NCBI GenBank assembly: GCA_946404295.1
Contig: CAMJDE010000001.1
Span: 1-26,081, forward strand
Length of the DNA: 26,081 nucleotides
Direction: 5' to 3'
Origin: an uncultured Clostridia bacterium
Lineage (GTDB): Bacteria; Bacillota; Clostridia; Oscillospirales; CAG-272
Below the pieces are notes generated by a model. That model saw only the letters and a list, made by a program, of their open reading frames with translations, was not told where the DNA came from and ran no database searches. Position 1 is the stretch's first letter. Every line of letters starts with the position of its first letter. The translations under genes and the position numbers were made by a program. Below, piece after piece: positions 409 to 10,377 of the stretch.

Positions 409-1221
409 ATGATTCAACTCGGAGAAAAAATTAAATCGTTGAGAAAGCGAAAGAACGTCTCGCAAGAGGTATTTGCCAACTATCTCGGCGTGTCTTTTCA
501 AGCCGTTTCAAAATGGGAGAACGGAATCACGATGCCGGACGTCGCCGCAATCCCGGCGATTGCGTCGTTCTTCGGCGTGTCGACCGACGAACTCTTCGAC
601 TTTAATCTGTATGAGATCGAGAAGAACGTGTCGGCGATCGTGGACGAGCATAGCAAATACTGGGATACCGACAAGAGAAAAGCGGAACGGATTATCCGCG
701 ACGGGCTGAAGAAGTATCCCGGGAACGACGTGCTGTTGAACTGTCTGATCGGCGTTCTTGATCTTCCCGAGCAGAGCGGCGAGGTCATTTCGACCGCAAA
801 AGCGCTGATTGAGAGTACCAAGTATGACGACGTGCGGCTCGACGCTTGGCGCATTCTGGCGGAGGCGTACGCAGCACAGGGCGAGATGCAAGCCGCAAAA
901 GACGCAATCGAGCATATTCCCGAATTGTACTTTTCCAAACTGGAGGTTGCCGCCCGACTTCTTTTGGGCGAGGAAAGGTATCTGTCCGCGCAGAAGCAGA
1001 AAAGGTTGTCCGCAGAGACGCTGGTCGATATGCTGCTGATCACGGGCAACTATCTGAAAGAGCAAGGCGACACCGAGAAAGCAAACAGTCAATTTGACAT
1101 CGCGCAAAAGGTGATCGACGCTTTGTCAGAGGATTTTACGGAAACCAGATGCTTTAAGACGTCGTTTTCCGAACGATTGCGCGATCAGCGAGATGAACTC
1201 ACTTGTCTTTTGAACAAATGA
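409..1221 (+). CDS. XRE-family HTH transcriptional regulator with C-terminal helical/TPR-like domain
   Basis: N-terminus LGEKIKSLRKRKNVSQEVFANYLGVSFQAVSKWENGITMPD is a classic HTH_3. C-terminus is helical with TPR-like repeats. Good RBS. Confidence 0.9.
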   Translation: MIQLGEKIKSLRKRKNVSQEVFANYLGVSFQAVSKWENGITMPDVAAIPAIASFFGVSTDELFDFNLYEIEKNVSAIVDEHSKYWDTDKRKAERIIRDGLKKYPGNDVLLNCLIGVLDLPEQSGEVISTAKALIESTKYDDVRLDAWRILAEAYAAQGEMQAAKDAIEHIPELYFSKLEVAARLLLGEERYLSAQKQKRLSAETLVDMLLITGNYLKEQGDTEKANSQFDIAQKVIDALSEDFTETRCFKTSFSERLRDQRDELTCLLNK

Positions 1222-1256
1222 AAAAACGCCCGCGCCGTGTCGCGCGGGCGTTTTTT
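1221..1256 (+). terminator. intrinsic terminator (bidirectional form)
   Basis: AAAAAACGCCCGCGC-CGTGTC-GCGCGGGCGTTTTTT directly after the XRE stop. Confidence 0.9.
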
Positions 1257-1284
1257 CGCTACGGGGTGCCGCAGGGCGCCCCGT

Positions 1285-1313
1285 TTGACACTTCGGTTCT
1301 CTCGTGCTATAAT
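1285..1313 (+). promoter_or_regulatory. sigma-A promoter of permease-GNAT operon
   Basis: TTGACA(1285-1290)-N17-TATAAT(1308-1313) with extended -10 TG. Confidence 0.85.
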
Positions 1314-1376
1314 AGTTTCGGTACTTCCGCGGACGGACTTCGCGCAGTCCGCAAAACCGCTTTTCGGGAGAACGAT

Positions 1377-2570
1377 ATGCAATCCAAGAAACTGACCTTT
1401 ATCGAATCGGTAATGCTGATTGCGGGGGCGGGGATCGGAACGGGGATCATCTCCATTCCGTACGCCATCGCCCGGATCGGGGTATTCGGGACGTTGACGG
1501 CGCTTGCCGTCGCGTACGTCGTCAGCGTGTTCACCTATCTGATGTTAGCCGATCTGGTGCGGAACTCGAAGGAGTCCGAGGACCTGATCGGGTCGCTGAA
1601 CGAGCACGTCTTTACGGGGAAGGGACGGAGAGTGCTGAACGTCGTCTTTCTCGTTCTGCTGGCGCTTCTCTTGCTCGAGTTCCTCGTCGTTTACACCCTC
1701 TGCGCCGGGAACGTGCTTGCCGATCTCCTCGGGATCAACGGCGCGCTTGCCAAGATCCTGTTCTACCTTGCCGCGTCGTCGATCGTGTTCGTCGGCGTGA
1801 AGGGAATGGGAGTCGGCGAGAAGATCTCGGTCACGCTGATCGGCGTGGTCGTGATCGGGCTGACGGTCCTTTCGCTCTTTCATCGGCACGGGACGATCCC
1901 CCTGTCCTTCGGGCGCGGGAGCGTCGTGTTCGCCGTCTACGGCTTGTTTATGTATTCCTTGTCGTCGACATTCGCCGTCATTCAGGTCTGCAATCACATC
2001 GAAAAACCCGAGCAGACCGACGCCCCCGCCGAAGGCGACGCGAAGAGGAAGCCCGACCGGACGGGGCAAGCCGTCGTGTGGGGCATCGCGCTGAACGGGA
2101 TCCTGACGACGGTGTTCTCGGTCGCGGTCATCCTCGGCTCCGAGAACGTGACCGAGATCGCGACGATCGGACTGTCCGAGGGGATCGGGATCCCGTTCGT
2201 CAAGGTTCTGTGTTCTCTGCTCGTGCTCGGCGCGATGTTCACGTCGTTCTGGTCGATCGGTTTTGCCTTTTCCGACGTGGTTTTCTGCCGTTTCAAACGG
2301 TCGACCCAACTGTCCTGGCTGATTACGACGCTGCCCGCGGCGTTGATTGCCGTTCTGGTTCCGCTCTCGGTTCTCGACTACGTGCAGATCGGCGCGGGGG
2401 CGCTCTCTCTGATCTTTCTGCTGGTCGTTTTTCCCGCCTATCTGCACGCGGTAAAGGATCCGATCCAACCGCTTCTGCTCGGGAAACTGTCCGGAAAACG
2501 GGGGCTGATCGCGTTCGTCGTGATCGGCACGGTTCTGATGGCTGCCGCGTCGCTGATCCCGATTTCGTAA
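1377..2570 (+). CDS. aromatic amino acid transport family permease (Trp/Tyr permease-like, APC superfamily)
   Basis: MQSKKLTFIESVMLIAGAGIGTGIISIPY matches the TM1 G-x-x-I-G-x-G-I-x-x-I-P-Y pattern, with about 11 hydrophobic segments. Start moved to ATG 1377 because the ORF-track start (1203) lies upstream of the terminator and promoter. Confidence 0.8.
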   Translation: MQSKKLTFIESVMLIAGAGIGTGIISIPYAIARIGVFGTLTALAVAYVVSVFTYLMLADLVRNSKESEDLIGSLNEHVFTGKGRRVLNVVFLVLLALLLLEFLVVYTLCAGNVLADLLGINGALAKILFYLAASSIVFVGVKGMGVGEKISVTLIGVVVIGLTVLSLFHRHGTIPLSFGRGSVVFAVYGLFMYSLSSTFAVIQVCNHIEKPEQTDAPAEGDAKRKPDRTGQAVVWGIALNGILTTVFSVAVILGSENVTEIATIGLSEGIGIPFVKVLCSLLVLGAMFTSFWSIGFAFSDVVFCRFKRSTQLSWLITTLPAALIAVLVPLSVLDYVQIGAGALSLIFLLVVFPAYLHAVKDPIQPLLLGKLSGKRGLIAFVVIGTVLMAAASLIPIS

Positions 2571-2591
2571 TCGACCTTCAAGGAGGGAACT

Positions 2592-3650
2592 ATGTCAGAG
2601 TACGAAGCCAAGCCCGAGGACGGGAGAGAAATATCGAGGATCCTTGACGCGTCGACGAGTAACGGGCTGATCGACCTTCTCTATACGAGGCGCCCGGACG
2701 CCTACGCGTCCTATCAGAAGGAACCGGGCGAAGCCCGCGTTTTCGCCCGGAAAAAGGACGGCGCAGTCGTTTCGACCTGCGCCGAACTGGTTCGCGACGT
2801 TTACGTCGGCGGGGAAGCGTGCAAAGCGGCGTATATCTGCGGGCTGAAAAAGGACCCCGACTATCCGGGCGGCGCCGGGATCAGCGCGAAGATCGTCCGG
2901 GAGTTTCAGCGCGACGATATCGACGCTTATTATTTCGGCGTTCTGACCGACAACCCCCGCGCCAAAGAGATGTTCGAGAAGACCTCGCGGCTCTTCTCCA
3001 CGCGGCACGTCACGTCCGTCAAAACCTATATCGTCAGCCCGCGGGCGAAGATCAAGGCGCCGAAGAACGCGTACGCCTTCCGGCAGGCGCGCGAGGACGA
3101 TCTGCCGGCGCTGCTCGCCTTTCTGCAGAGAGAGGGCGCGAAAAAGGATCTGTTTCCCGTCGTCCGGTCGCTCGACACGTTCTACAATCTCCATATCGGG
3201 GACTTTTACCTCTTGCTCGACGGCGGGGAGATCGTCGCCTGCGCCGCTCTCTGGAACTCGACCGGGTACAAGCAGTACGTCGTCCGGAAGTACAGCCCGC
3301 TTATGAAAATCGCACGGTTCTTAAACCCCTTGATCGCGGCGCTCGGGTTCATCCGGCTCCCGAAGGAAAACGCGCCGCTCGATTTTCCGATGCTGTCGTT
3401 TTTTCTCACCAAGGACGGGCGGGAAGACCTCTTCTATATCTACCTGAACCGGGTTCGGAAAGAGGTCGGAAAAAGGTACGGACTATACGTTTTTGCCCTG
3501 CCGGACGGGCACTTTGCGCGCAAAACCCTCGATCGGACGCACCACGTCGGTTTCCGGACGATGATCTACGAGATCCGCTTCCCGTGGAGCGGCCAATCGT
3601 ACAAAACGATCGATCCCGACCGCATGGCGACCGAAAGCGGATTGCTGTAA
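2592..3650 (+). CDS. GNAT-fold (probably tandem GNAT/NMT-like) acyltransferase-like protein
   Basis: AGGAGG RBS. Two GNAT-like halves (VYVGGEACKAAYICGLKKDPDY and YAFRQAREDDLPALLAFL...IVACAALWN). Substrate unknown. Confidence 0.55.
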   Translation: MSEYEAKPEDGREISRILDASTSNGLIDLLYTRRPDAYASYQKEPGEARVFARKKDGAVVSTCAELVRDVYVGGEACKAAYICGLKKDPDYPGGAGISAKIVREFQRDDIDAYYFGVLTDNPRAKEMFEKTSRLFSTRHVTSVKTYIVSPRAKIKAPKNAYAFRQAREDDLPALLAFLQREGAKKDLFPVVRSLDTFYNLHIGDFYLLLDGGEIVACAALWNSTGYKQYVVRKYSPLMKIARFLNPLIAALGFIRLPKENAPLDFPMLSFFLTKDGREDLFYIYLNRVRKEVGKRYGLYVFALPDGHFARKTLDRTHHVGFRTMIYEIRFPWSGQSYKTIDPDRMATESGLL

Positions 3651-3656
3651 AACACG

Positions 3657-3692
3657 AAAAAGACCGGGAGCAGCCGTTCGGCTGCTCCCGGT
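3657..3692. terminator. terminator between convergent GNAT and anti-sigma genes
   Basis: ACCGGGAGCAGCC..GGCTGCTCCCGGT 13-bp stem (3663-3692). The A-tract at 3657-3661 gives a U-tract on the minus strand. Confidence 0.85.
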
Positions 3693-3708
3693 TGCTTGAT
3701 CGGGATTC

Positions 3709-4446
3709 TCACGCCTCTTCTTCCGTCGGGGGGAGCGCGGCGAGCGTCTCTTCGGTCAGGCGGCGGGGAATGGGTTTGGCGTCGGAGATCACCTCGCAGA
3801 GGATGGGGAAGAGGAAGGCGACCTTGCCGCTCTTTTCGGCGGGCGCGACGAAGAGATAGGCGCCGTTGCCGGTATGCCAGCGGAAGAGCGAGGCGGTCCG
3901 TGTGATCAGAACAGAGGCGGGGGTGCGGAGGAATGCGCGATGAAGCGGAAGAGTTCCGACGCCGTAGCGGTCTTTCGACCGTTCGGGACTCTCCGGCACT
4001 CCGCCCGCGAGGTCGAAACGCACCGCCTCGCCGTAGCGAAGCGCGTCGGTTTCGCTCCCGCCGATTTGGTTGAATTGCGATTGGAAATACATATGCGCCG
4101 CGCTGTCCGTCAGGTGGGAGGAGCCGTCGAAGGCGGGATCGGTCTTTTCCCCGAGCAGCGTTTCGGAGACGCGAAAGAATTGTTCGGTCGAAGGGAGCGG
4201 GATCCCGGACGATCCGTGATTCACGGTCATCGAGTCGTGGGGGTTTTCCTCTATATAATCGGTCGAGGGAATAAGGCGATCGGGTCCGACGGTCCGGATC
4301 CCCGGGAAAAAGAACAACAGGCAGGTGAAGAGGAGCGCGAACGGGTAGGCGAGGGAGAGGGCGCTCCGGCGCTTTTCGCGGACGGTTTCACGCTTAGCGT
4401 CGATCCTTTTCAGCACTTCCGCTTTGTAGAAGTCAAGGTCTTTCAT
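3709..4446 (-). CDS. putative membrane-anchored anti-sigma factor
   Basis: Short charged N-terminus, a single TM (SALSLAYPFALLFTCLLFFFPGI) and a C-terminal domain of unknown family. The start overlaps the ECF stop as ATGA (4443-4446). Confidence 0.6.
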   Translation of the reverse strand: MKDLDFYKAEVLKRIDAKRETVREKRRSALSLAYPFALLFTCLLFFFPGIRTVGPDRLIPSTDYIEENPHDSMTVNHGSSGIPLPSTEQFFRVSETLLGEKTDPAFDGSSHLTDSAAHMYFQSQFNQIGGSETDALRYGEAVRFDLAGGVPESPERSKDRYGVGTLPLHRAFLRTPASVLITRTASLFRWHTGNGAYLFVAPAEKSGKVAFLFPILCEVISDAKPIPRRLTEETLAALPPTEEEA

Positions 4447-4994
4447 ATCAGTTCTTTTCCCTCCTCTCCGAGTAGTTCGCGCAGGGCTTTTTTGGCGCGG
4501 TAGAGCAGATTGTCGATCTGCTTTTTGTTTTTGCCCATGACCCGCGCCGCCTCTTCGTAGGACAGTCCGTCGAAATAGATCAGGTGGATCGCGACCGAGA
4601 GGTTCGCGGGCAGTTTTCCGAGCGCCTCCGACAGCACCCGGCTCCGTTCGTTTGACAAAACCGTCGCGGCGGGGTCAAAATCGTCTCCCGCGATCGCGTC
4701 GGGGTCGGGCAGATCGGCGTCCTGCCGTCACCTCTTCTTTTTCAGGTAGCGGAACGCCCCGTTCTTTCCGAGCATATAGAGGTAGGTTTTGAGCGAGGTG
4801 CGGAAATCGTAGCGGCGGGGATGAACGAAGAGGTCCGAGACGGCTTCCATCGCGATCTCTTCCGCCGCGCGGGCGTCGCGGACGTAGCGTTCGACAAAGA
4901 ACACGAGCCCGAAGAAAAAGGCGTCCATGATCGCGTCGAAGGCGCTTTCGTCGCCGCCGAGATAGCGGCGGTACAGTTCTCTGCCGTCGTCCAT
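4443..4994 (-). pseudogene. ECF sigma-70 factor (183 codons) with a single in-frame TGA at 4728-4730 (nonsense allele or readthrough)
   Basis: Sigma2 half (4731-4994): YRRYLGGDESAFDAIM...AEEIAMEA...FRTSLKTYLY. After the TGA the same frame continues RQDADLPDPDAIAGDDFDPAATVL into sigma4 (ALGKLP...LIYFDGLSYEEAARVMGKNKKQIDNLLYRAKKALRELL). GGAGG RBS before ATG 4994. Confidence 0.85.
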
Positions 4995-5036
4995 CGGATC
5001 CCCCCTCCCGCAAGTATTCTTCGCTCCGTTTCTCTT

Positions 5037-5065
5037 TTATAGATCGCGAGGGGCGAAAAGTCCTT
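5037..5065 (-). promoter_or_regulatory. 29-bp ECF-promoter-like repeat, copy 1 (upstream of ECF gene)
   Basis: Minus strand AAGGACTTTTCGCCCCTCGCGATCTATAA; 1 mismatch to copy 3. Confidence 0.65.
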
Positions 5066-5112
5066 GCGTTTTTTTGAAAAAAGTCGTAAAAAGCCGACTT
5101 TTTTCACCCTTT

Positions 5113-5141
5113 ATTGTAAAGGACGAGGGGGAAAAAGTCAA
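5113..5141 (-). promoter_or_regulatory. sigma-A promoter upstream of ECF gene
   Basis: Minus strand TTGACT-N17-TACAAT. Confidence 0.7.
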
Positions 5142-5155
5142 TCCCCGGGGCGGGG

Positions 5156-6397
5156 TCAGCCGTTCGGGTCGTTCAGCGTGCCGATGAAAAGAGGGAGATT
5201 GTTCTCGACGTCGTAGATCAGGTAGACGAAGGGGCGGTCGAGGGAGATTTCTTTCGGCGGTTCCAGATATATTCCGCCACAATAGTCGAGAAATACGCCG
5301 GTGACCGCCGCCGCTCGCGTTCCCGCCTCGCCGACCTCGATATAGGTCTTGTGCAGGACCCGGGAGATATAAAGACCGATCCCCGTGACGAGAGGATCGA
5401 CGATCCCCGAGAAGTCCGCCACGGAATCGTCGAACGCCTCGGTCATCCCGAGATTTTTGAGAGGGTCGTTCAATTTGAGCTCGGTTCTGCTCTTGAATTT
5501 CGGAAGACGGGTTATGACCGTACAGTTCCGTTTGTTTTGCAGGATGGTCGCGATCCGCTCTCCGTCGAGGGTGGCGATATAGTCCGCGACCGCGGTCCCT
5601 TCGCTCGGCAGGAGAGCCGCGAAAGCGTAGCGTCCGCCGGCGTAGGGCTTGACGAAGCCGAGCGCACGGTCGCCGTCTTCAAGGAACAGGCGTTCGGTGC
5701 CGCAGAGGAATTCCACCTCGACCTTGTCGCCGTTCTCTTTTGTGAAGTCGCCGGACCTGACCTCCGACTCCTGCCTGTACGGTTCCGCCCATTTCGCGTC
5801 GAAGGCGAGGGCGTTCAGGATCAGCATCATCGTTTCGCGCGGGATCTCGTCGACGAGCTTCTCGATCATTCCGTCGGTCTTCTCCCTGACCCAGCCGTTG
5901 ATCTCGTCGACCGCCTCCCGGTCAAAGGGAGTGCGGTACGCGGCGGCGCGGTAGACGTCGGCGCACGCCCCGAGAAACGCGTCCTTGACGGCCAGCCGAT
6001 CGTCGTTTCGGATCCAGAGCGCGTCGGCGAGCGCGAGTTTGCAGGTTTCGTCGTTCGGGAGATTTGCGAGATAGGCGTCAAAAAAGGCGTTCAGTTCCTC
6101 GACCGACGTGCCGAGAACGCTCTCCATCTGCGCCCGCGTTTCTCCCGCCGCGCCGGTTGCGGTCATGGCGAGGGCGGCGAGGACCGAGAGCGGGGAGAGC
6201 AGGGTATTGTTGCCGTCGTACGCCGCGCGGTAGAGCCGGATCGCGAAATCCAGCGTACCGGACGAGACGCCGGCTTCGGGCGTGATATCGACCGTCTGCG
6301 TCGGATCTTCTCTCCTCGCTGATCCGCACCCGGCGAGGGACAGGGCGAAGGCGACGAGCAGAAGCAGGGCGAGCAAGAGCGAGAGTGTTTTTTTCAT
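5156..6397 (-). CDS. serpin (serine protease inhibitor), lipoprotein; serpin A, 413 aa
   Basis: Lipobox LAGC after a signal peptide; SPLSV shutter motif; hinge EAGTRAAAVT; C-terminal DRPFVYLIYD...PLFIG. True start is ATG 6397 with AAAGGAG RBS; the ORF-track extension to 6994 is spurious. Confidence 0.95.
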   Translation of the reverse strand: MKKTLSLLLALLLLVAFALSLAGCGSARREDPTQTVDITPEAGVSSGTLDFAIRLYRAAYDGNNTLLSPLSVLAALAMTATGAAGETRAQMESVLGTSVEELNAFFDAYLANLPNDETCKLALADALWIRNDDRLAVKDAFLGACADVYRAAAYRTPFDREAVDEINGWVREKTDGMIEKLVDEIPRETMMLILNALAFDAKWAEPYRQESEVRSGDFTKENGDKVEVEFLCGTERLFLEDGDRALGFVKPYAGGRYAFAALLPSEGTAVADYIATLDGERIATILQNKRNCTVITRLPKFKSRTELKLNDPLKNLGMTEAFDDSVADFSGIVDPLVTGIGLYISRVLHKTYIEVGEAGTRAAAVTGVFLDYCGGIYLEPPKEISLDRPFVYLIYDVENNLPLFIGTLNDPNG

Positions 6398-6432
6398 ACG
6401 TTTCTCCTTTCGGGTGGTCCCCTTTTCACCCG

Positions 6433-6461
6433 TTATAGAACGCGAGGGGCGAATAGTCCTT
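6433..6461 (-). promoter_or_regulatory. 29-bp ECF-promoter-like repeat, copy 2 (upstream of serpin A)
   Basis: Minus strand AAGGACTATTCGCCCCTCGCGTTCTATAA; 1 mismatch to copy 3. Confidence 0.65.
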
Positions 6462-6464
6462 ATC

Positions 6465-6499
6465 AAAAAAGCGCCGCTCCCGAAAAAAGGGAGCGGTGC
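6465..6499 (-). terminator. intrinsic terminator after hypothetical gene
   Basis: Minus strand GCACCGCTCCC-TTTTTTC-GGGAGCGGCGC-TTTTTT. Confidence 0.75.
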
Positions 6500-6524
6500 G
6501 GGGAAAAAACAGCCGTTCGGGAGT

Positions 6525-7187
6525 TTAGCGCAGTTCGACGCGTCCGAAGACGTGCTCGTGGTCGAATCCGCAGCCGGCTTTCCCCGGCGTTTCGGGCGTG
6601 CGATCCGCGATGTATTCCGCGCTGACCATAAGGGTCCCGGAATCGTCGTACCAAAACAAGTAGATATCGTCACGGATGGGATCGCGCAGGCGGAGAGCGT
6701 CGTCTTCCTCAATCCTTTCCTCGATCTGCCGGACGAGCGCCGCGCGGATCCGATTGATTTGTTCCTGCGAGAAGCCGGTCGAGTAGAACCGCTTGAAGCC
6801 GTTTTCAAAACGCGACCACGTTCCCTCCGGGTTGCGTTGATTGGAGTAGAAACGACACATACAATCGGTTTCCATTCCTCCGAGGCAGAACGTAAACTCG
6901 ACCGAGAGATAATCGTTGTTGCCGACGACGCGCTCTCGCAGCATCTCGCGCGGGATCGCCCGCCAGGACGGATACTGTTCCAGCATTTTTTCATAATACT
7001 CGTCCAGGATCGCCTGTTTAGCGTCGGAATACTCCGCCTTAACGGGTTTGACCGCTTGGCGGGGGGAAACGGGGGTCAGGAACAGGACGGTTTCGGCGCC
7101 GGAGTTCTTCTCGTAGATCTCGGTCAGGGCGATCAGCCCGCCGAGCATCAGCAGGGAGACGACGAGCGAAACGATTTTGCGGATCAT
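6525..7187 (-). CDS. hypothetical exported/membrane-anchored protein (220 aa)
   Basis: AAAGGAGG RBS and an N-terminal hydrophobic segment (IVSLVVSLLMLGGLIAL). No family recognised. C-terminal GCGFDHEH motif. Confidence 0.75.
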   Translation of the reverse strand: MIRKIVSLVVSLLMLGGLIALTEIYEKNSGAETVLFLTPVSPRQAVKPVKAEYSDAKQAILDEYYEKMLEQYPSWRAIPREMLRERVVGNNDYLSVEFTFCLGGMETDCMCRFYSNQRNPEGTWSRFENGFKRFYSTGFSQEQINRIRAALVRQIEERIEEDDALRLRDPIRDDIYLFWYDDSGTLMVSAEYIADRTPETPGKAGCGFDHEHVFGRVELR

Positions 7188-7227
7188 ACGAATCCTCCTT
7201 TCGGGGGGATCATCCCCTATGCATCTG

Positions 7228-7256
7228 TTATAGAACGCGAGGGGCGAAAAGTCCTT
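7228..7256 (-). promoter_or_regulatory. 29-bp ECF-promoter-like repeat, copy 3 (upstream of hypothetical gene)
   Basis: Minus strand AAGGACTTTTCGCCCCTCGCGTTCTATAA. Confidence 0.65.
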
Positions 7257-7276
7257 ATCAAAAGGCGCGGGGGAAA

Positions 7277-8530
7277 TCAGCCGTTCGGGTCGTTCAGCGC
7301 GCCGATGAAGAGCGGGATATTCGTCGTCGTATCGAAGAGGATATAGACGAAGGGACGGTCGAGGATCACCGACGGGACCTCGTCGGATTGGGCGCTTGCG
7401 GTTTTGCCTCTTACGGCGGTCACGGCGCCGGCGCGCGTCCCCTTCTCTCCGACCTCGATAAAGGTTTTGTGCCTGACCTTGCCGATATAGAGGGGGGTGG
7501 TTTCGGAAATCCCCGAGAAATCGGCTTTCTCAAGCAGAAAGGCGTCGGTCATCCCCATCTTGGAGAGGGCGTCTTTGAGATCGGTTTCAAACCGGGTCTT
7601 GAACTTCGGCAGTTTGGTTTCGACCGCGACGCGTTCGACGCTCCCCAGGATCTTTGCGATCCGCTCTCCGTCAAGGGTCGCGATATAATCCGCGATCGCG
7701 ATCCCCTTCGCCGGGAGTAGCGCGGCGAAGGCGTAGCGCCCCCCCACGTAGGGCTTGATGAACCCGACCGCACGGTCGCCGTCGGACAGGTAACGATATT
7801 CACCGCCCGAAAGGAAGGTCACGGTCGCGTCGGTCCCGTCCTCTTTGTGAAAGAGCCCGGACGATTTCTGGGTATTGAGCGTGTAGGGCGACGCCCATTT
7901 TCCGTCGAAGAGCAGGGCGTTGACGAGCAGCGCGAGATCGTCGTCCCGCAGGTCGTCGAGGATCGAATCGATCAGCCCGTCGGTATGATCCTTCACCCAT
8001 TGATTGACGTCCTTGACCGTCGTTTTGTCAAACGGGGCGCGGAAGGCGCCCGCGCGATAGACGTCGGCGTTGATCTGCAGAAAGTCCTCTTTGACCGAGA
8101 AGCGCGGGTCGTCGCGGAGCCAGATCGAGTCGGCGACGGCGAGCGTGACGCCGTCGTCCTTTTTCAGCGAAGCGAGGTAAGCCGCAAAGAAGGCGTTGAG
8201 TTCCCCGACCGTCATCCCGAGGGCGCTTTCCATCTGTGCCCGCGTCTCTCCCGCCGCGCCGTTTGCGGTCATGGCGAGGGCGACGAGAGCCGAGAGCGGG
8301 GAGAGCAGGGTGTTTTTGCCGTCGTAGGTCGCCCGGAAGAGCCGCGCGGCAAAGTCCACGGCGAAAGCCGAGGCGTCGTCCGGGACGGTCGCGGGTTCGC
8401 TCTCGCGGGGCGTGATCCCCGCCATCAGGTCGGTCGCGACGATCTTGTGTCGGCAGCCCGAGAGGGTCGGAACGAGGACGAAGAGCAGCGAGAGGGCGAG
8501 CAGCAGGGATAAAACGCGGGTTTTGCGCAT
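7277..8530 (-). CDS. serpin, lipoprotein; serpin B, 417 aa
   Basis: Lipobox LSGC; SPLSA; hinge EKGTRAGAVT; DRPFVYILFD...PLFIG. Ends LNDPNG like serpin A. AAAGGAG RBS. Confidence 0.95.
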   Translation of the reverse strand: MRKTRVLSLLLALSLLFVLVPTLSGCRHKIVATDLMAGITPRESEPATVPDDASAFAVDFAARLFRATYDGKNTLLSPLSALVALAMTANGAAGETRAQMESALGMTVGELNAFFAAYLASLKKDDGVTLAVADSIWLRDDPRFSVKEDFLQINADVYRAGAFRAPFDKTTVKDVNQWVKDHTDGLIDSILDDLRDDDLALLVNALLFDGKWASPYTLNTQKSSGLFHKEDGTDATVTFLSGGEYRYLSDGDRAVGFIKPYVGGRYAFAALLPAKGIAIADYIATLDGERIAKILGSVERVAVETKLPKFKTRFETDLKDALSKMGMTDAFLLEKADFSGISETTPLYIGKVRHKTFIEVGEKGTRAGAVTAVRGKTASAQSDEVPSVILDRPFVYILFDTTTNIPLFIGALNDPNG

Positions 8531-8586
8531 AGCAATTCTCCTTTCGGGGGCGGGTAACGGGTGGGGCGGTTTTCGACCCCGAACCG

Positions 8587-10377
8587 TTACCCGATCGGCT
8601 CGAAGTCGGCGGCGCCGTGTTTGCAGAGCGGACAGACGAAATCTTCGGGGAGTTCGTCTCCCTCGTAGACGTAGCCGCAGATCTTGCAGACGTAGCCCTT
8701 TTTGCCTTCGGTCTTGGGTTTGGGCTTGACGTTCTGCTGATAGTAGGCGTAGGTCATACTCTCGCGATCCGAGAGCACCCGCGCCTCGGTGACCGAGCAG
8801 ACGAACATCCCGTGCGTGTCGAGGTCGACGTACTGCTCGACCTTCAGCGACAGAAACGCGTTGATGCTGTCGGGGAGAAATACCAGTCCGTTATCCGAAC
8901 GCAGGACGTCGGTCCCCTTGAACTTGTCTGCCGTCCGCCCGCTTTGGAACCCGAACCGCTCGAAGAGCGAGAAGGGCGCGTCGGTCGAGAGGCAGTTGAC
9001 GTTCATTTTCCCGGTCTGCTTGATGATATGGTGCGAATAGTTCTGCTTGCTGATGCAGACGGCGACGCGGTTCGGGGTGTTCGTCACCTGGCTGACGGTA
9101 TTGACGATCAGCCCGTTGTCGCGCGTCCCGTCGTTCGACGTGACGACGTAGAGCCCGTAGCCGATCTTGAAGAGGGCGGTCAGGTCGTTCTTGTTCGCCG
9201 TCTCGCCGTTCTTCTGGATATAGTCGCGGCAGAGTTCGTCGGCGAGGGCTGTGATTTCGCCCCGGCTGACGTCGTTCAGAGCCGACGCGATCCGGACGGT
9301 CTGCTCGGTAAAGGTGATCTCCTTGCACCCCTCGAGCATCGAACGCATCACCTTCGCCGCCTGCGGCGCCCAGCTTCCGTTCTCGATCAGCGCGACGGTG
9401 CGGTTTTTGTACCCGCGCTCGACGAGATGCTCGATGAAGGTGCGCATAAAGGGGAAGATATCGGCGTTGTAGGTCGTGGTCGCCAGTACCAGACGCCCGT
9501 AGCGGAAGGCGTCCTCGACCGCCTCCGCCAGATCGTCGCGGGCAAGGTCGGTCAGAACGACTTTCGGGCAGCCGCGTTCTTTCAACTTATCGGCGAGCAG
9601 AAGAACGGCGTTCTTGGTGTTGCCGTAGACCGAGGTATAGGCGATCACGATCCCGTCGCTCTCGACGCCGTAGGACGACCAGGTGTTGTAGAGGTCGAGG
9701 TAGTACCCGAGGTTCTCTTTGAGGATCGGACCGTGCAGCGGGCAGATGATCCGAATATCGAGCGCCGCCGCTTTTTTCAAGACCGCCTGCACCTGCGCGC
9801 CGTATTTGCCGACGATGCCGAAGTAGTAGCGCCGCGCCTCGCACGCCCAGTCCTCGTCGGCGTCGAGCGCGCCGAACTTGCCGAACCCGTCGGCGGAGAA
9901 GAGGATCTTGTCGCACGCGTCGTAGGTCATAATGACCTCGGGCCAATGCACCATCGGCGCGGCGATGAAGGAGAGGGTATGCCGCCCGAGCGGGAGGGTC
10001 GAGCCCTCGCCGACCACGATCCGGCGGTCGGCAAAATCGCGCCCGTAAAAGTTGTTCATCATCGCGAACGCCTTTGCCGACGAAACGACCGTCGCGTCGG
10101 GATAGGTCGAGAGGAAATTGACGATATTCGCCGAGTGGTCGGGCTCCATGTGCTGGACGATCAGGTAGTCGGGACGGCGCCCGCCGAGAGCGGCGGCGAC
10201 GTTGTCGAGCCATTCGTGGGTGAAGTTGCGGTCGACGGTATCGAGTACCGCGACCTTCTCGTCCAGAATGACGTAGGAATTGTACGCCATTCCTTCCGGG
10301 ACGACGTACTGCCCCTCGAAGAGGTCGATCTTGCGGTCGTTGACGCCGACGTAACGGACGTCGGTTGTGATGTTCAT
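8587..10377 (-). CDS. fprA: flavodiiron protein (FprA core) fused to flavin reductase and rubredoxin domains (class D-type architecture)
   Basis: Diiron motifs HMEPDH, VHWPE, ADGFG and PLHG; flavodoxin YTSVYGNT; flavin reductase-like segment (IGYGLYVVTS...DTHGMFVC); rubredoxin CKICGY...CPLC. Confidence 0.92.
   Translation of the reverse strand: MNITTDVRYVGVNDRKIDLFEGQYVVPEGMAYNSYVILDEKVAVLDTVDRNFTHEWLDNVAAALGGRRPDYLIVQHMEPDHSANIVNFLSTYPDATVVSSAKAFAMMNNFYGRDFADRRIVVGEGSTLPLGRHTLSFIAAPMVHWPEVIMTYDACDKILFSADGFGKFGALDADEDWACEARRYYFGIVGKYGAQVQAVLKKAAALDIRIICPLHGPILKENLGYYLDLYNTWSSYGVESDGIVIAYTSVYGNTKNAVLLLADKLKERGCPKVVLTDLARDDLAEAVEDAFRYGRLVLATTTYNADIFPFMRTFIEHLVERGYKNRTVALIENGSWAPQAAKVMRSMLEGCKEITFTEQTVRIASALNDVSRGEITALADELCRDYIQKNGETANKNDLTALFKIGYGLYVVTSNDGTRDNGLIVNTVSQVTNTPNRVAVCISKQNYSHHIIKQTGKMNVNCLSTDAPFSLFERFGFQSGRTADKFKGTDVLRSDNGLVFLPDSINAFLSLKVEQYVDLDTHGMFVCSVTEARVLSDRESMTYAYYQQNVKPKPKTEGKKGYVCKICGYVYEGDELPEDFVCPLCKHGAADFEPIG

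Follow-up and report, generated by a model that had tools for sequence, protein, structure and literature searches.

A gene cluster on the minus strand of contig CAMJDE010000001.1, from an uncultured Clostridia bacterium (Oscillospirales, CAG-272; GenBank assembly GCA_946404295.1), probably encodes an autoregulated switch composed of a sigma factor of the extracytoplasmic function (ECF) type and a membrane-anchored anti-sigma-like partner. Judging from sequence comparison, the regulon of this switch would include its own operon, the surface serpin A, a 220-residue exported protein and, probably, lipoproteins encoded on a second contig of the genome (C28). The anatomy and conservation of a repeated promoter motif, the linkage of the genes and the predicted binding of the two regulators, all shown computationally, carry this reading. 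The stretch analyzed, referred to as the window, is the entire contig (C1, 26,081 nucleotides). In the order of transcription, the cluster consists of a flavodiiron gene, serpin B, the gene for the 220-residue protein, serpin A, the ECF sigma gene, and a gene for a 245-residue membrane protein. The metagenome-assembled genome (MAG) from which it derives measures 1.9 Mb in 284 contigs, is 81% complete, and has a G+C content of 59.6%. Sequencing runs bearing the locus come from bovine, sheep, and other gut metagenomes, and the host is a rumen or gut Clostridia bacterium.

A first-pass annotation, made from the letters of the window, had described a near-identical 29-bp motif before the genes of the ECF sigma factor, serpin A and the exported protein. 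The 29-mer matches the window exactly three times, at all three of these positions, on the minus strand throughout and with 0 mismatches to the degenerate pattern, against an expectation of 0 matches in shuffled sequence (100 shuffles). Copy 1 (5037–5065), putatively autoregulatory, lies 42 nt 5′ of the sigma start codon (ATG 4994), copy 2 (6433–6461) lies 35 nt 5′ of serpin A (ATG 6397), and copy 3 (7228–7256), which reads AAGGACTTTT...TCTATAA, lies 40 nt 5′ of the gene for the 220-residue protein (ATG 7187). The copies agree with one another at 27–28 of 29 positions, whereas their 35-nt flanks are 49–71% identical and the two serpin genes 66% identical. The flanks of the copy ahead of sigma are unrelated to those of the serpin-side copies. 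A genome-wide scan, suggested earlier as a check, returned only the three window sites when up to 3 mismatches were allowed in the 24-nt core, and a gapped scan added a fourth, AGGACTTTTTCGCCCCCGTGTACTATAA, on C28, 48 nt 5′ of the gene for a 281-residue lipoprotein. A loose GGAC-N-TCTA scan of the genome was uninformative, its matches equaling the shuffled expectation, and a search of 60 relatives at up to 3 mismatches gave one match, inside a coding sequence and attributable to chance. On C28 (locus L100), the 281-residue gene (736–1581, minus strand) is followed by a gene for a 127-residue lipoprotein; each of the two has a paralog immediately upstream, and these follow a gene for a 150-residue protein with HTH_3 and sigma-70 region 4 (listed at 3641–4093, minus strand).

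Eight related metagenome contigs, whose sigma genes are 94–99% identical to that of the window at the nucleotide level, all carry the motif, both ahead of sigma and ahead of each downstream-type serpin or 219-residue gene. Its changes in this close set fall at spacer positions 11 and 14–16, at position 22, which adjoins the −10 element on its 5′ side, and in one case within that element, at position 27. The wider sigma clade was found in 73 of 401 genomes of the order, and we analyzed the 29 best loci (45–56% identity, many families). Upstream of these orthologs lies a bipartite motif composed of (T)AAGGA(A/T)T(T), ~14–15 unrelated bases, and YGTATAA. In 24 of the 29 loci, the regular expression AAGGAN-N15-18-YGTATAA has a single match between −57 and −124 relative to the sigma start, and elsewhere it occurs only 3 times in 235 kb, counting both strands; the remaining five loci have near-variants of the motif or are truncated by the contig end. 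The spacer between the two halves is not conserved at the family level. A bipartite motif with unrelated spacers upstream of sigma orthologs is the signature of an autoregulated ECF promoter, the role that had been proposed for the 29-mer, and by this comparison the window sequence is the local form of the family-wide motif.

The sigma factor and its candidate promoters appear to have changed together in this lineage. Family members whose −10 element is GTATAA carry G(R/K)S(R/K)AL(D/N)... in sigma region 2.4 (GRSRALDYIRR). This lineage alone has GKNGAFRYLKK in region 2.4 together with a −10 element CTATAA, and the derived CTATAA is common to all four sites of the genome (sigma, both cassette copies, and C28), as would be expected if one sigma factor read all of them. 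The motif might alternatively serve another factor, either as a promoter of the housekeeping sigma in which AAGGAAT is an activator site or as the target of a DNA-binding regulator, with the ECF linkage reflecting co-regulation. The resemblance of its −10 part to TATAAT in about half of the orthologs fits such a role. However, the last T of a sigma-70 −10 element is found in ~14 of 24 orthologs and is C or A in this lineage, no TTGACA-like −35 element accompanies it, and the motif tracks sigma in every ortholog locus. Since the lineage-specific −10 change also coincides with the change in region 2.4, and the loci share no conserved gene for any other regulator, we regard a different reader of the motif as improbable.

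The serpin-side copies sit in repeated units. Ahead of the serpin-type genes, the intergenic units show homology over their full extent, each comprising a serpin 3′ end or its remnant, a terminator, the promoter, and a leader with a hairpin and a ribosome-binding site (RBS); the cassettes are therefore products of duplication. On a DNA contig of a different sample, a serpin-B-like gene is joined directly to position 6521 without the 220-residue gene, which is therefore a presence/absence cassette (6522–7273) between direct repeats of a serpin 3′ end. The 219-residue orthologs of that protein in two close relatives (L029 and L031) are lipoproteins bearing the signal peptide of serpin A. The shared signal peptide and the missing gene thus indicate that cassette bodies are exchanged behind a constant promoter and leader. 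This history raises the question of whether the 29-mer is a mere by-product of tandem duplication of serpin cassettes, devoid of a regulatory role, as the whole-length homology of the units and the contig lacking one cassette between the same repeats would allow. Against this stand the unrelated flanks of the sigma copy, the occurrence of the motif with unrelated spacers before sigma orthologs of distant families, the fourth copy before an unrelated lipoprotein gene on another contig, and a conservation of the motif far exceeding that of its flanks or of the serpin genes themselves. A by-product is, on the sequence evidence, already largely refuted by the conservation of the motif among orthologs, and we consider it very improbable. 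A strictly local duplication, with neither motif nor serpin/ECF linkage in relatives, had been named as the outcome that would undo the proposal, and both were found in relatives.

Terminators precede two of the three promoter copies, those of sigma and serpin A, and none is found between serpin B and the gene for the 220-residue protein. An intrinsic terminator with an 8-bp GC-rich stem and a T run (6474–6496, minus strand), kept in relatives, lies between the 220-residue gene and copy 2. An A/T-rich hairpin followed by a T run (5075–5106, minus strand; 12 pairs, 4 of them GC), either a terminator or an attenuator, separates copy 1 from a sigma-70-like promoter, TTGACT-17-TACAAT (5113–5141, minus strand). 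The latter, which the first-pass annotation had taken for a sigma-A promoter, matches the consensus at 10 of 12 positions, is kept in five relatives (L027, L029, L031, L035, and L037), and is probably a basal promoter. Together with its leader (5075–5141), also kept in relatives, it resembles a second copy of the ECF promoter and leader that has diverged. A strong intrinsic terminator (3663–3692, minus strand; 13 pairs, 10 GC) closes the sigma/anti-sigma operon. One could imagine that the motif acts in RNA, controlling processing or translation as a leader element of a long read-through transcript, given the missing terminator between serpin B and the 220-residue gene and the contigs from RNA libraries that cover the region upstream of sigma. 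However, a search of the window against Rfam gave no match, spacer changes are uncompensated downstream, and the family spacer is not conserved; moreover, two copies follow terminators, RNA libraries may contain DNA, and the contigs break at the repeat. An RNA element is accordingly a scarcely credible explanation, and we retain that of an ECF promoter.

The sigma gene (4443–4994, minus strand, 183 codons) encodes a protein with regions 2 and 4 only, of the ~170–200 residues typical of ECF (group 4) factors. It matches Sigma70_r2 (29.7 bits, cut-off 24) and Sigma70_r4_2 (47.8 bits, cut-off 25.7) in Pfam, as well as TIGR02937 (73.4 bits, cut-off 42.9), and the sequence suggests that it has an upstream bipartite −35/−10 promoter of its own, as expected of this class. 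The sigma gene ends at 4443 and that of its partner (3709–4446, minus strand) starts at 4446, confirming the 4-nt ATGA overlap that had been noted between sigma and a single-pass membrane protein. Each of the 29 ortholog sigma genes is likewise followed by an overlapping gene for a single-pass protein, and the N-terminal helix is of one conserved type throughout these loci (M-R/K-x-x-E-E-x-K-A-E-I-F-R-R).

The 245-residue partner consists of a cytoplasmic N-terminal helix (res. ~2–28), a single transmembrane segment (res. ~29–49), a variable ectodomain (res. ~50–176), and a conserved C-terminal module (res. ~177–236). An alignment of homologs shows that residues 1–49 are nearly invariant and residues ~50–176 rich in insertions and deletions, and that the C-terminal module is kept even in a 38%-identical homolog. 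A complex modeled between an intact orthologous sigma and partner residues 1–60 scored 0.63, as compared to 0.01 for the best control; 51 of 78 solved complexes attained this mark, as did 2 of 108 mismatched pairs. In the model, partner residues 4–22 pack on sigma region 2, which supports binding of the partner to the sigma factor. With its ATGA coupling, single transmembrane segment, and predicted sigma-binding N-terminus, the protein has the general features of a membrane anti-sigma factor. It differs from the class I proteins (ASDI, zf-HC2, RskA) in having one helix before the membrane in the model and no profile match to a four-helix anti-sigma domain or an HxxxCxxC motif, and from the RsiV type in that its ectodomain gives no Pfam match to DUF4163/PdaC or DUF3298, only weak Atlas features (0.79, DUF4367). 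The genome also encodes a site-2 protease (M50).

Homologs of the partner are few: 13 in metagenomes (38–95% identity) and one at a JGI locus, with no match to the window protein as query in 36 same-genus and 24 same-order genomes or in the GTDB species collection; the ectodomain is therefore lineage-specific. Across the clade, ectodomains have no detectable mutual similarity, even among serpin-linked partners. The partner itself (3709–4446) contains no serpin domain. On contig C223 (L026), a second, unrelated ECF-type sigma of 185 residues (2701–3258, minus strand) is ATGA-coupled to a 448-residue membrane protein (1358–2704, minus strand), whose ectodomain (res. 95–446) is a complete serpin. 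The genome therefore also carries a serpin-tipped anti-sigma module.

Serpin A (5156–6397, minus strand; lipobox LAGC; Pfam Serpin 9.4e-82) and serpin B (7277–8530, minus strand; lipobox LSGC; Pfam Serpin 8.8e-84) are paralogs and, as had been recognized from the start, lipoproteins. Both match the Pfam family over its full length, and their hinges, GTRAAAVT in serpin A and GTRAGAVT in serpin B, suggest that they are inhibitory. Serpin B follows the gene for a four-domain flavodiiron protein (8587–10377, minus strand) behind a conserved hairpin leader (8531–8586, minus strand). This hairpin, GGGTAAC...GTTACCC, lacks a T run and has no Rfam match. In another lineage (L097 and L098), this leader recurs with a compensatory change in the stem (GGGTAAA...TTTACCC) and precedes both a homolog of the 220-residue protein and a serpin.

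The 220-residue exported protein (6525–7187, minus strand) has an N-terminal transmembrane anchor and belongs to a family of 53 representative clusters that has no match in Pfam or NCBIfam. A homolog with 47% identity adjoins a serpin in another lineage (L097). AlphaFold2 (AF2) predicts the structure with a mean local confidence (pLDDT) of 91, and Foldseek finds no match to the fold in the PDB or AFDB. Fold comparison with VIA gave Z-scores of at most 5.4, below the usual noise level. By shape, the Atlas places the protein near FTP/PepSY/M4-propeptide clusters (TM-score 0.45–0.54), and by features near DUF3298 (0.91); profile searches and sequence searches of the PDB back neither lead. The weak fold matches converge on the FTP/PepSY propeptides of M4/M36 metalloproteases and serve as a lead that the protein may be a second kind of protease inhibitor in the regulon.

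Linkage of sigma, partner and serpin recurs in other genomes, as the first-pass annotation had proposed to check, with a serpin gene following sigma and partner in 10 of the 29 ortholog loci. Two serpin loci retrieved with serpin A have a 40–52% identical sigma just upstream, and in L038 and L039 the genes run sigma, partner, serpin, either overlapping or nearly abutting (overlapping starts in L038). The layout in the window is instead split, with serpin cassettes upstream of sigma and a non-serpin protein in the place of one cassette body, as opposed to this sigma/anti-sigma/serpin operon type. Close relatives share variants of the split arrangement: a flavodiiron gene, three serpins, sigma, and partner in L027, where serpin B is laid out as in the window; a serpin, sigma, and partner in L037; and a serpin, the 219-residue lipoprotein, sigma, and partner in L029 and L031. 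In these contigs, the first serpin after the flavodiiron gene always lacks the motif. The other ortholog loci hold two recurrent exported families of no named kind (in L070, L074, L075, L078–L080, L082, L086, L091, and L096), one of which has a conserved DGGTREY..ALTYKIV motif and only sub-threshold matches to DUF3221. One locus (L092; G117:C138) has a dockerin-bearing S8 subtilase in the place of the serpin, downstream of the sigma/anti-sigma pair. A tree of the sigma factors resolves too poorly to place the serpin linkage as ancestral or otherwise.

Several observations weigh against the reading of the locus as an ECF switch. Serpin B has no upstream copy of the motif at up to 3 mismatches, and the regulon is therefore not simply "the surface serpins": of the regulon originally proposed, serpin A stands as a candidate member, serpin B falls away, and exported proteins other than serpins come in. 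By sequence, most orthologs of the sigma factor likewise drive surface proteins other than serpins. The serpin-side copies were duplicated as whole units, and their mutual similarity is therefore partly due to descent, while the concerted change of sigma and −10 element is not statistical proof because it is a single evolutionary event. Contigs from RNA runs, which we searched for transcript starts, yielded no 5′ ends, since they stop at 5036/5065, where the assembly graph is broken by the repeat. Pfam and NCBIfam searches placed the partner in no anti-sigma family, and its AF2 model (pLDDT 38) contains a helix at residues 2–46 and nothing confident beyond, which leaves the ectodomain without a predicted fold. 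Finally, the sigma reading frame is interrupted by an in-frame TGA (4725–4727) in the linker between regions 2 and 4.

This stop codon invites the explanation that the circuit is genuine but dead in this genome, a CGA>TGA change having truncated sigma after region 2 at the beginning of decay of the locus; the motif-bearing genes would therefore be silent or expressed at a basal level only. All eight close relatives have CGA (Arg) at this codon and an intact sigma of 183 residues, and the frame is also intact in the 29 orthologs. This genome uses TGA as a regular stop codon, and sigma itself is one of the genes that end with it. On the other hand, the stop is the sole defect, the promoters, partner, and targets being intact and near-identical to those of relatives, and in a MAG of such fragmentation and completeness a minority variant or consensus error is plausible. 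Given CGA in relatives at 94–99% nucleotide identity, the TGA represents a C>T change private to this genome, a minority allele, or an error of the assembly, and the circuit may consequently be inactive here, or the codon may be a strain variant or assembly error. We hold a dead circuit to be a serious possibility, though not the probable one.

We infer from these data a working mechanism for the switch, extending to the transcription starts, their dependence on sigma, its proteolytic release, and the nature of the signal. The 29-mer would be the promoter read by the adjacent ECF sigma factor, one copy driving the sigma/anti-sigma operon in positive autoregulation, and further copies driving serpin A, the 220-residue protein, and probably the C28 lipoprotein operon. 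The sigma-70-like promoter ahead of the ECF promoter would provide basal expression. Through its short N-terminal helix, the partner would keep sigma tethered to the membrane. An extracytoplasmic signal would end this hold by removing the partner, most likely through regulated proteolysis, and the freed sigma would increase the levels of both itself and the surface proteins. In an extension of this scheme, suggested by analogy, the long, fast-evolving and apparently unstructured ectodomain would act as a bait for foreign proteases, whose clipping would trigger intramembrane proteolysis, free sigma, and induce the inhibitors. The serpin and possible propeptide-like inhibitor among the outputs, the subtilase in one ortholog locus, the unstructured, variable linker, and the precedent of serpins induced by proteases in Bifidobacterium fit this idea, which we nonetheless judge unlikely as it stands.

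If the bait idea were true, the locus would sense proteases directly through an ECF pathway with negative feedback, as part of a wider ECF–serpin theme of gut and rumen Clostridia that also takes in serpin-tipped anti-sigma factors. Proteases of host, dietary, and microbial origin surround the bacteria of gut and rumen, and the locus allows the question of protease sensing by commensals to be asked directly. Bacterial serpins have been studied as modulators of gut inflammation, and in the literature that we searched their control in Clostridia is not described. The split layout illustrates how an ECF regulon may grow by duplication of its own promoter before exchangeable cassettes. As a unit, the locus offers a defined promoter consensus, a candidate cognate sigma, and a minimal anti-sigma of a putatively new type, and may supply an orthogonal sigma/promoter/anti-sigma part.

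Autoregulated ECF sigma factors held by a single-pass anti-sigma and released by regulated intramembrane proteolysis are exemplified by SigW/RsiW of Bacillus subtilis and RpoE/RseA of Escherichia coli. The locus resembles these systems (for reviews, see PMC8999054 among others) in its two-domain sigma coupled to a single-pass partner and in the bipartite promoter before its own operon and targets. It also shares with them envelope or surface targets and a site-2 protease gene. In contrast, the partner here lacks a class I domain or zinc motif and has a single helix of ~25 residues before the membrane. The consensus AAGGAAT-N14-15-YGTATAA and the serpin and lipoprotein outputs match none of the ECF regulons that we found described. 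What the window adds is a split, cassette-like arrangement in which the promoter is present in three to four copies, together with the concerted change of sigma and −10 element and the sigma nonsense allele.

The serpin of Bifidobacterium longum and the siropins of Eubacterium siraeum inhibit host elastase-type proteases. The serpins described here belong to the same protein family, come from the same gut or rumen habitat, and share the inhibitory-type hinge. Serpin biochemistry has been reported for the siropins (PMC5127057) and for the B. longum serpin (via PMC8201313); the siropin paper mentions neither regulation nor a sigma factor. Our literature search turned up no publication that connects serpins with ECF sigma factors, nor does the main text of the ECF reclassification paper mention serpins. 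A Bifidobacterium serpin is induced by proteases under a two-component system (Alvarez-Martin 2012, cited in PMC8201313), and the likeness to the present locus lies in a gut serpin placed under a dedicated, autoregulated signaling system. The systems differ in that a histidine kinase and response regulator operate there, and an ECF sigma and anti-sigma here; no histidine kinase or response regulator is among the called genes of the locus or of related loci.

In SigV/RsiV of Bacillus, Enterococcus, and Clostridioides, the ectodomain of the anti-sigma factor senses a hydrolase directly, and the output neutralizes the attacking host enzyme. SigV/RsiV embodies the same concept and is the best precedent for the sensing of a hydrolase by an ectodomain. 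It differs from the locus described here in its receptor domains, to which the partner gives no Pfam match, and in its output, which is cell-wall modification there and protease inhibitors here.

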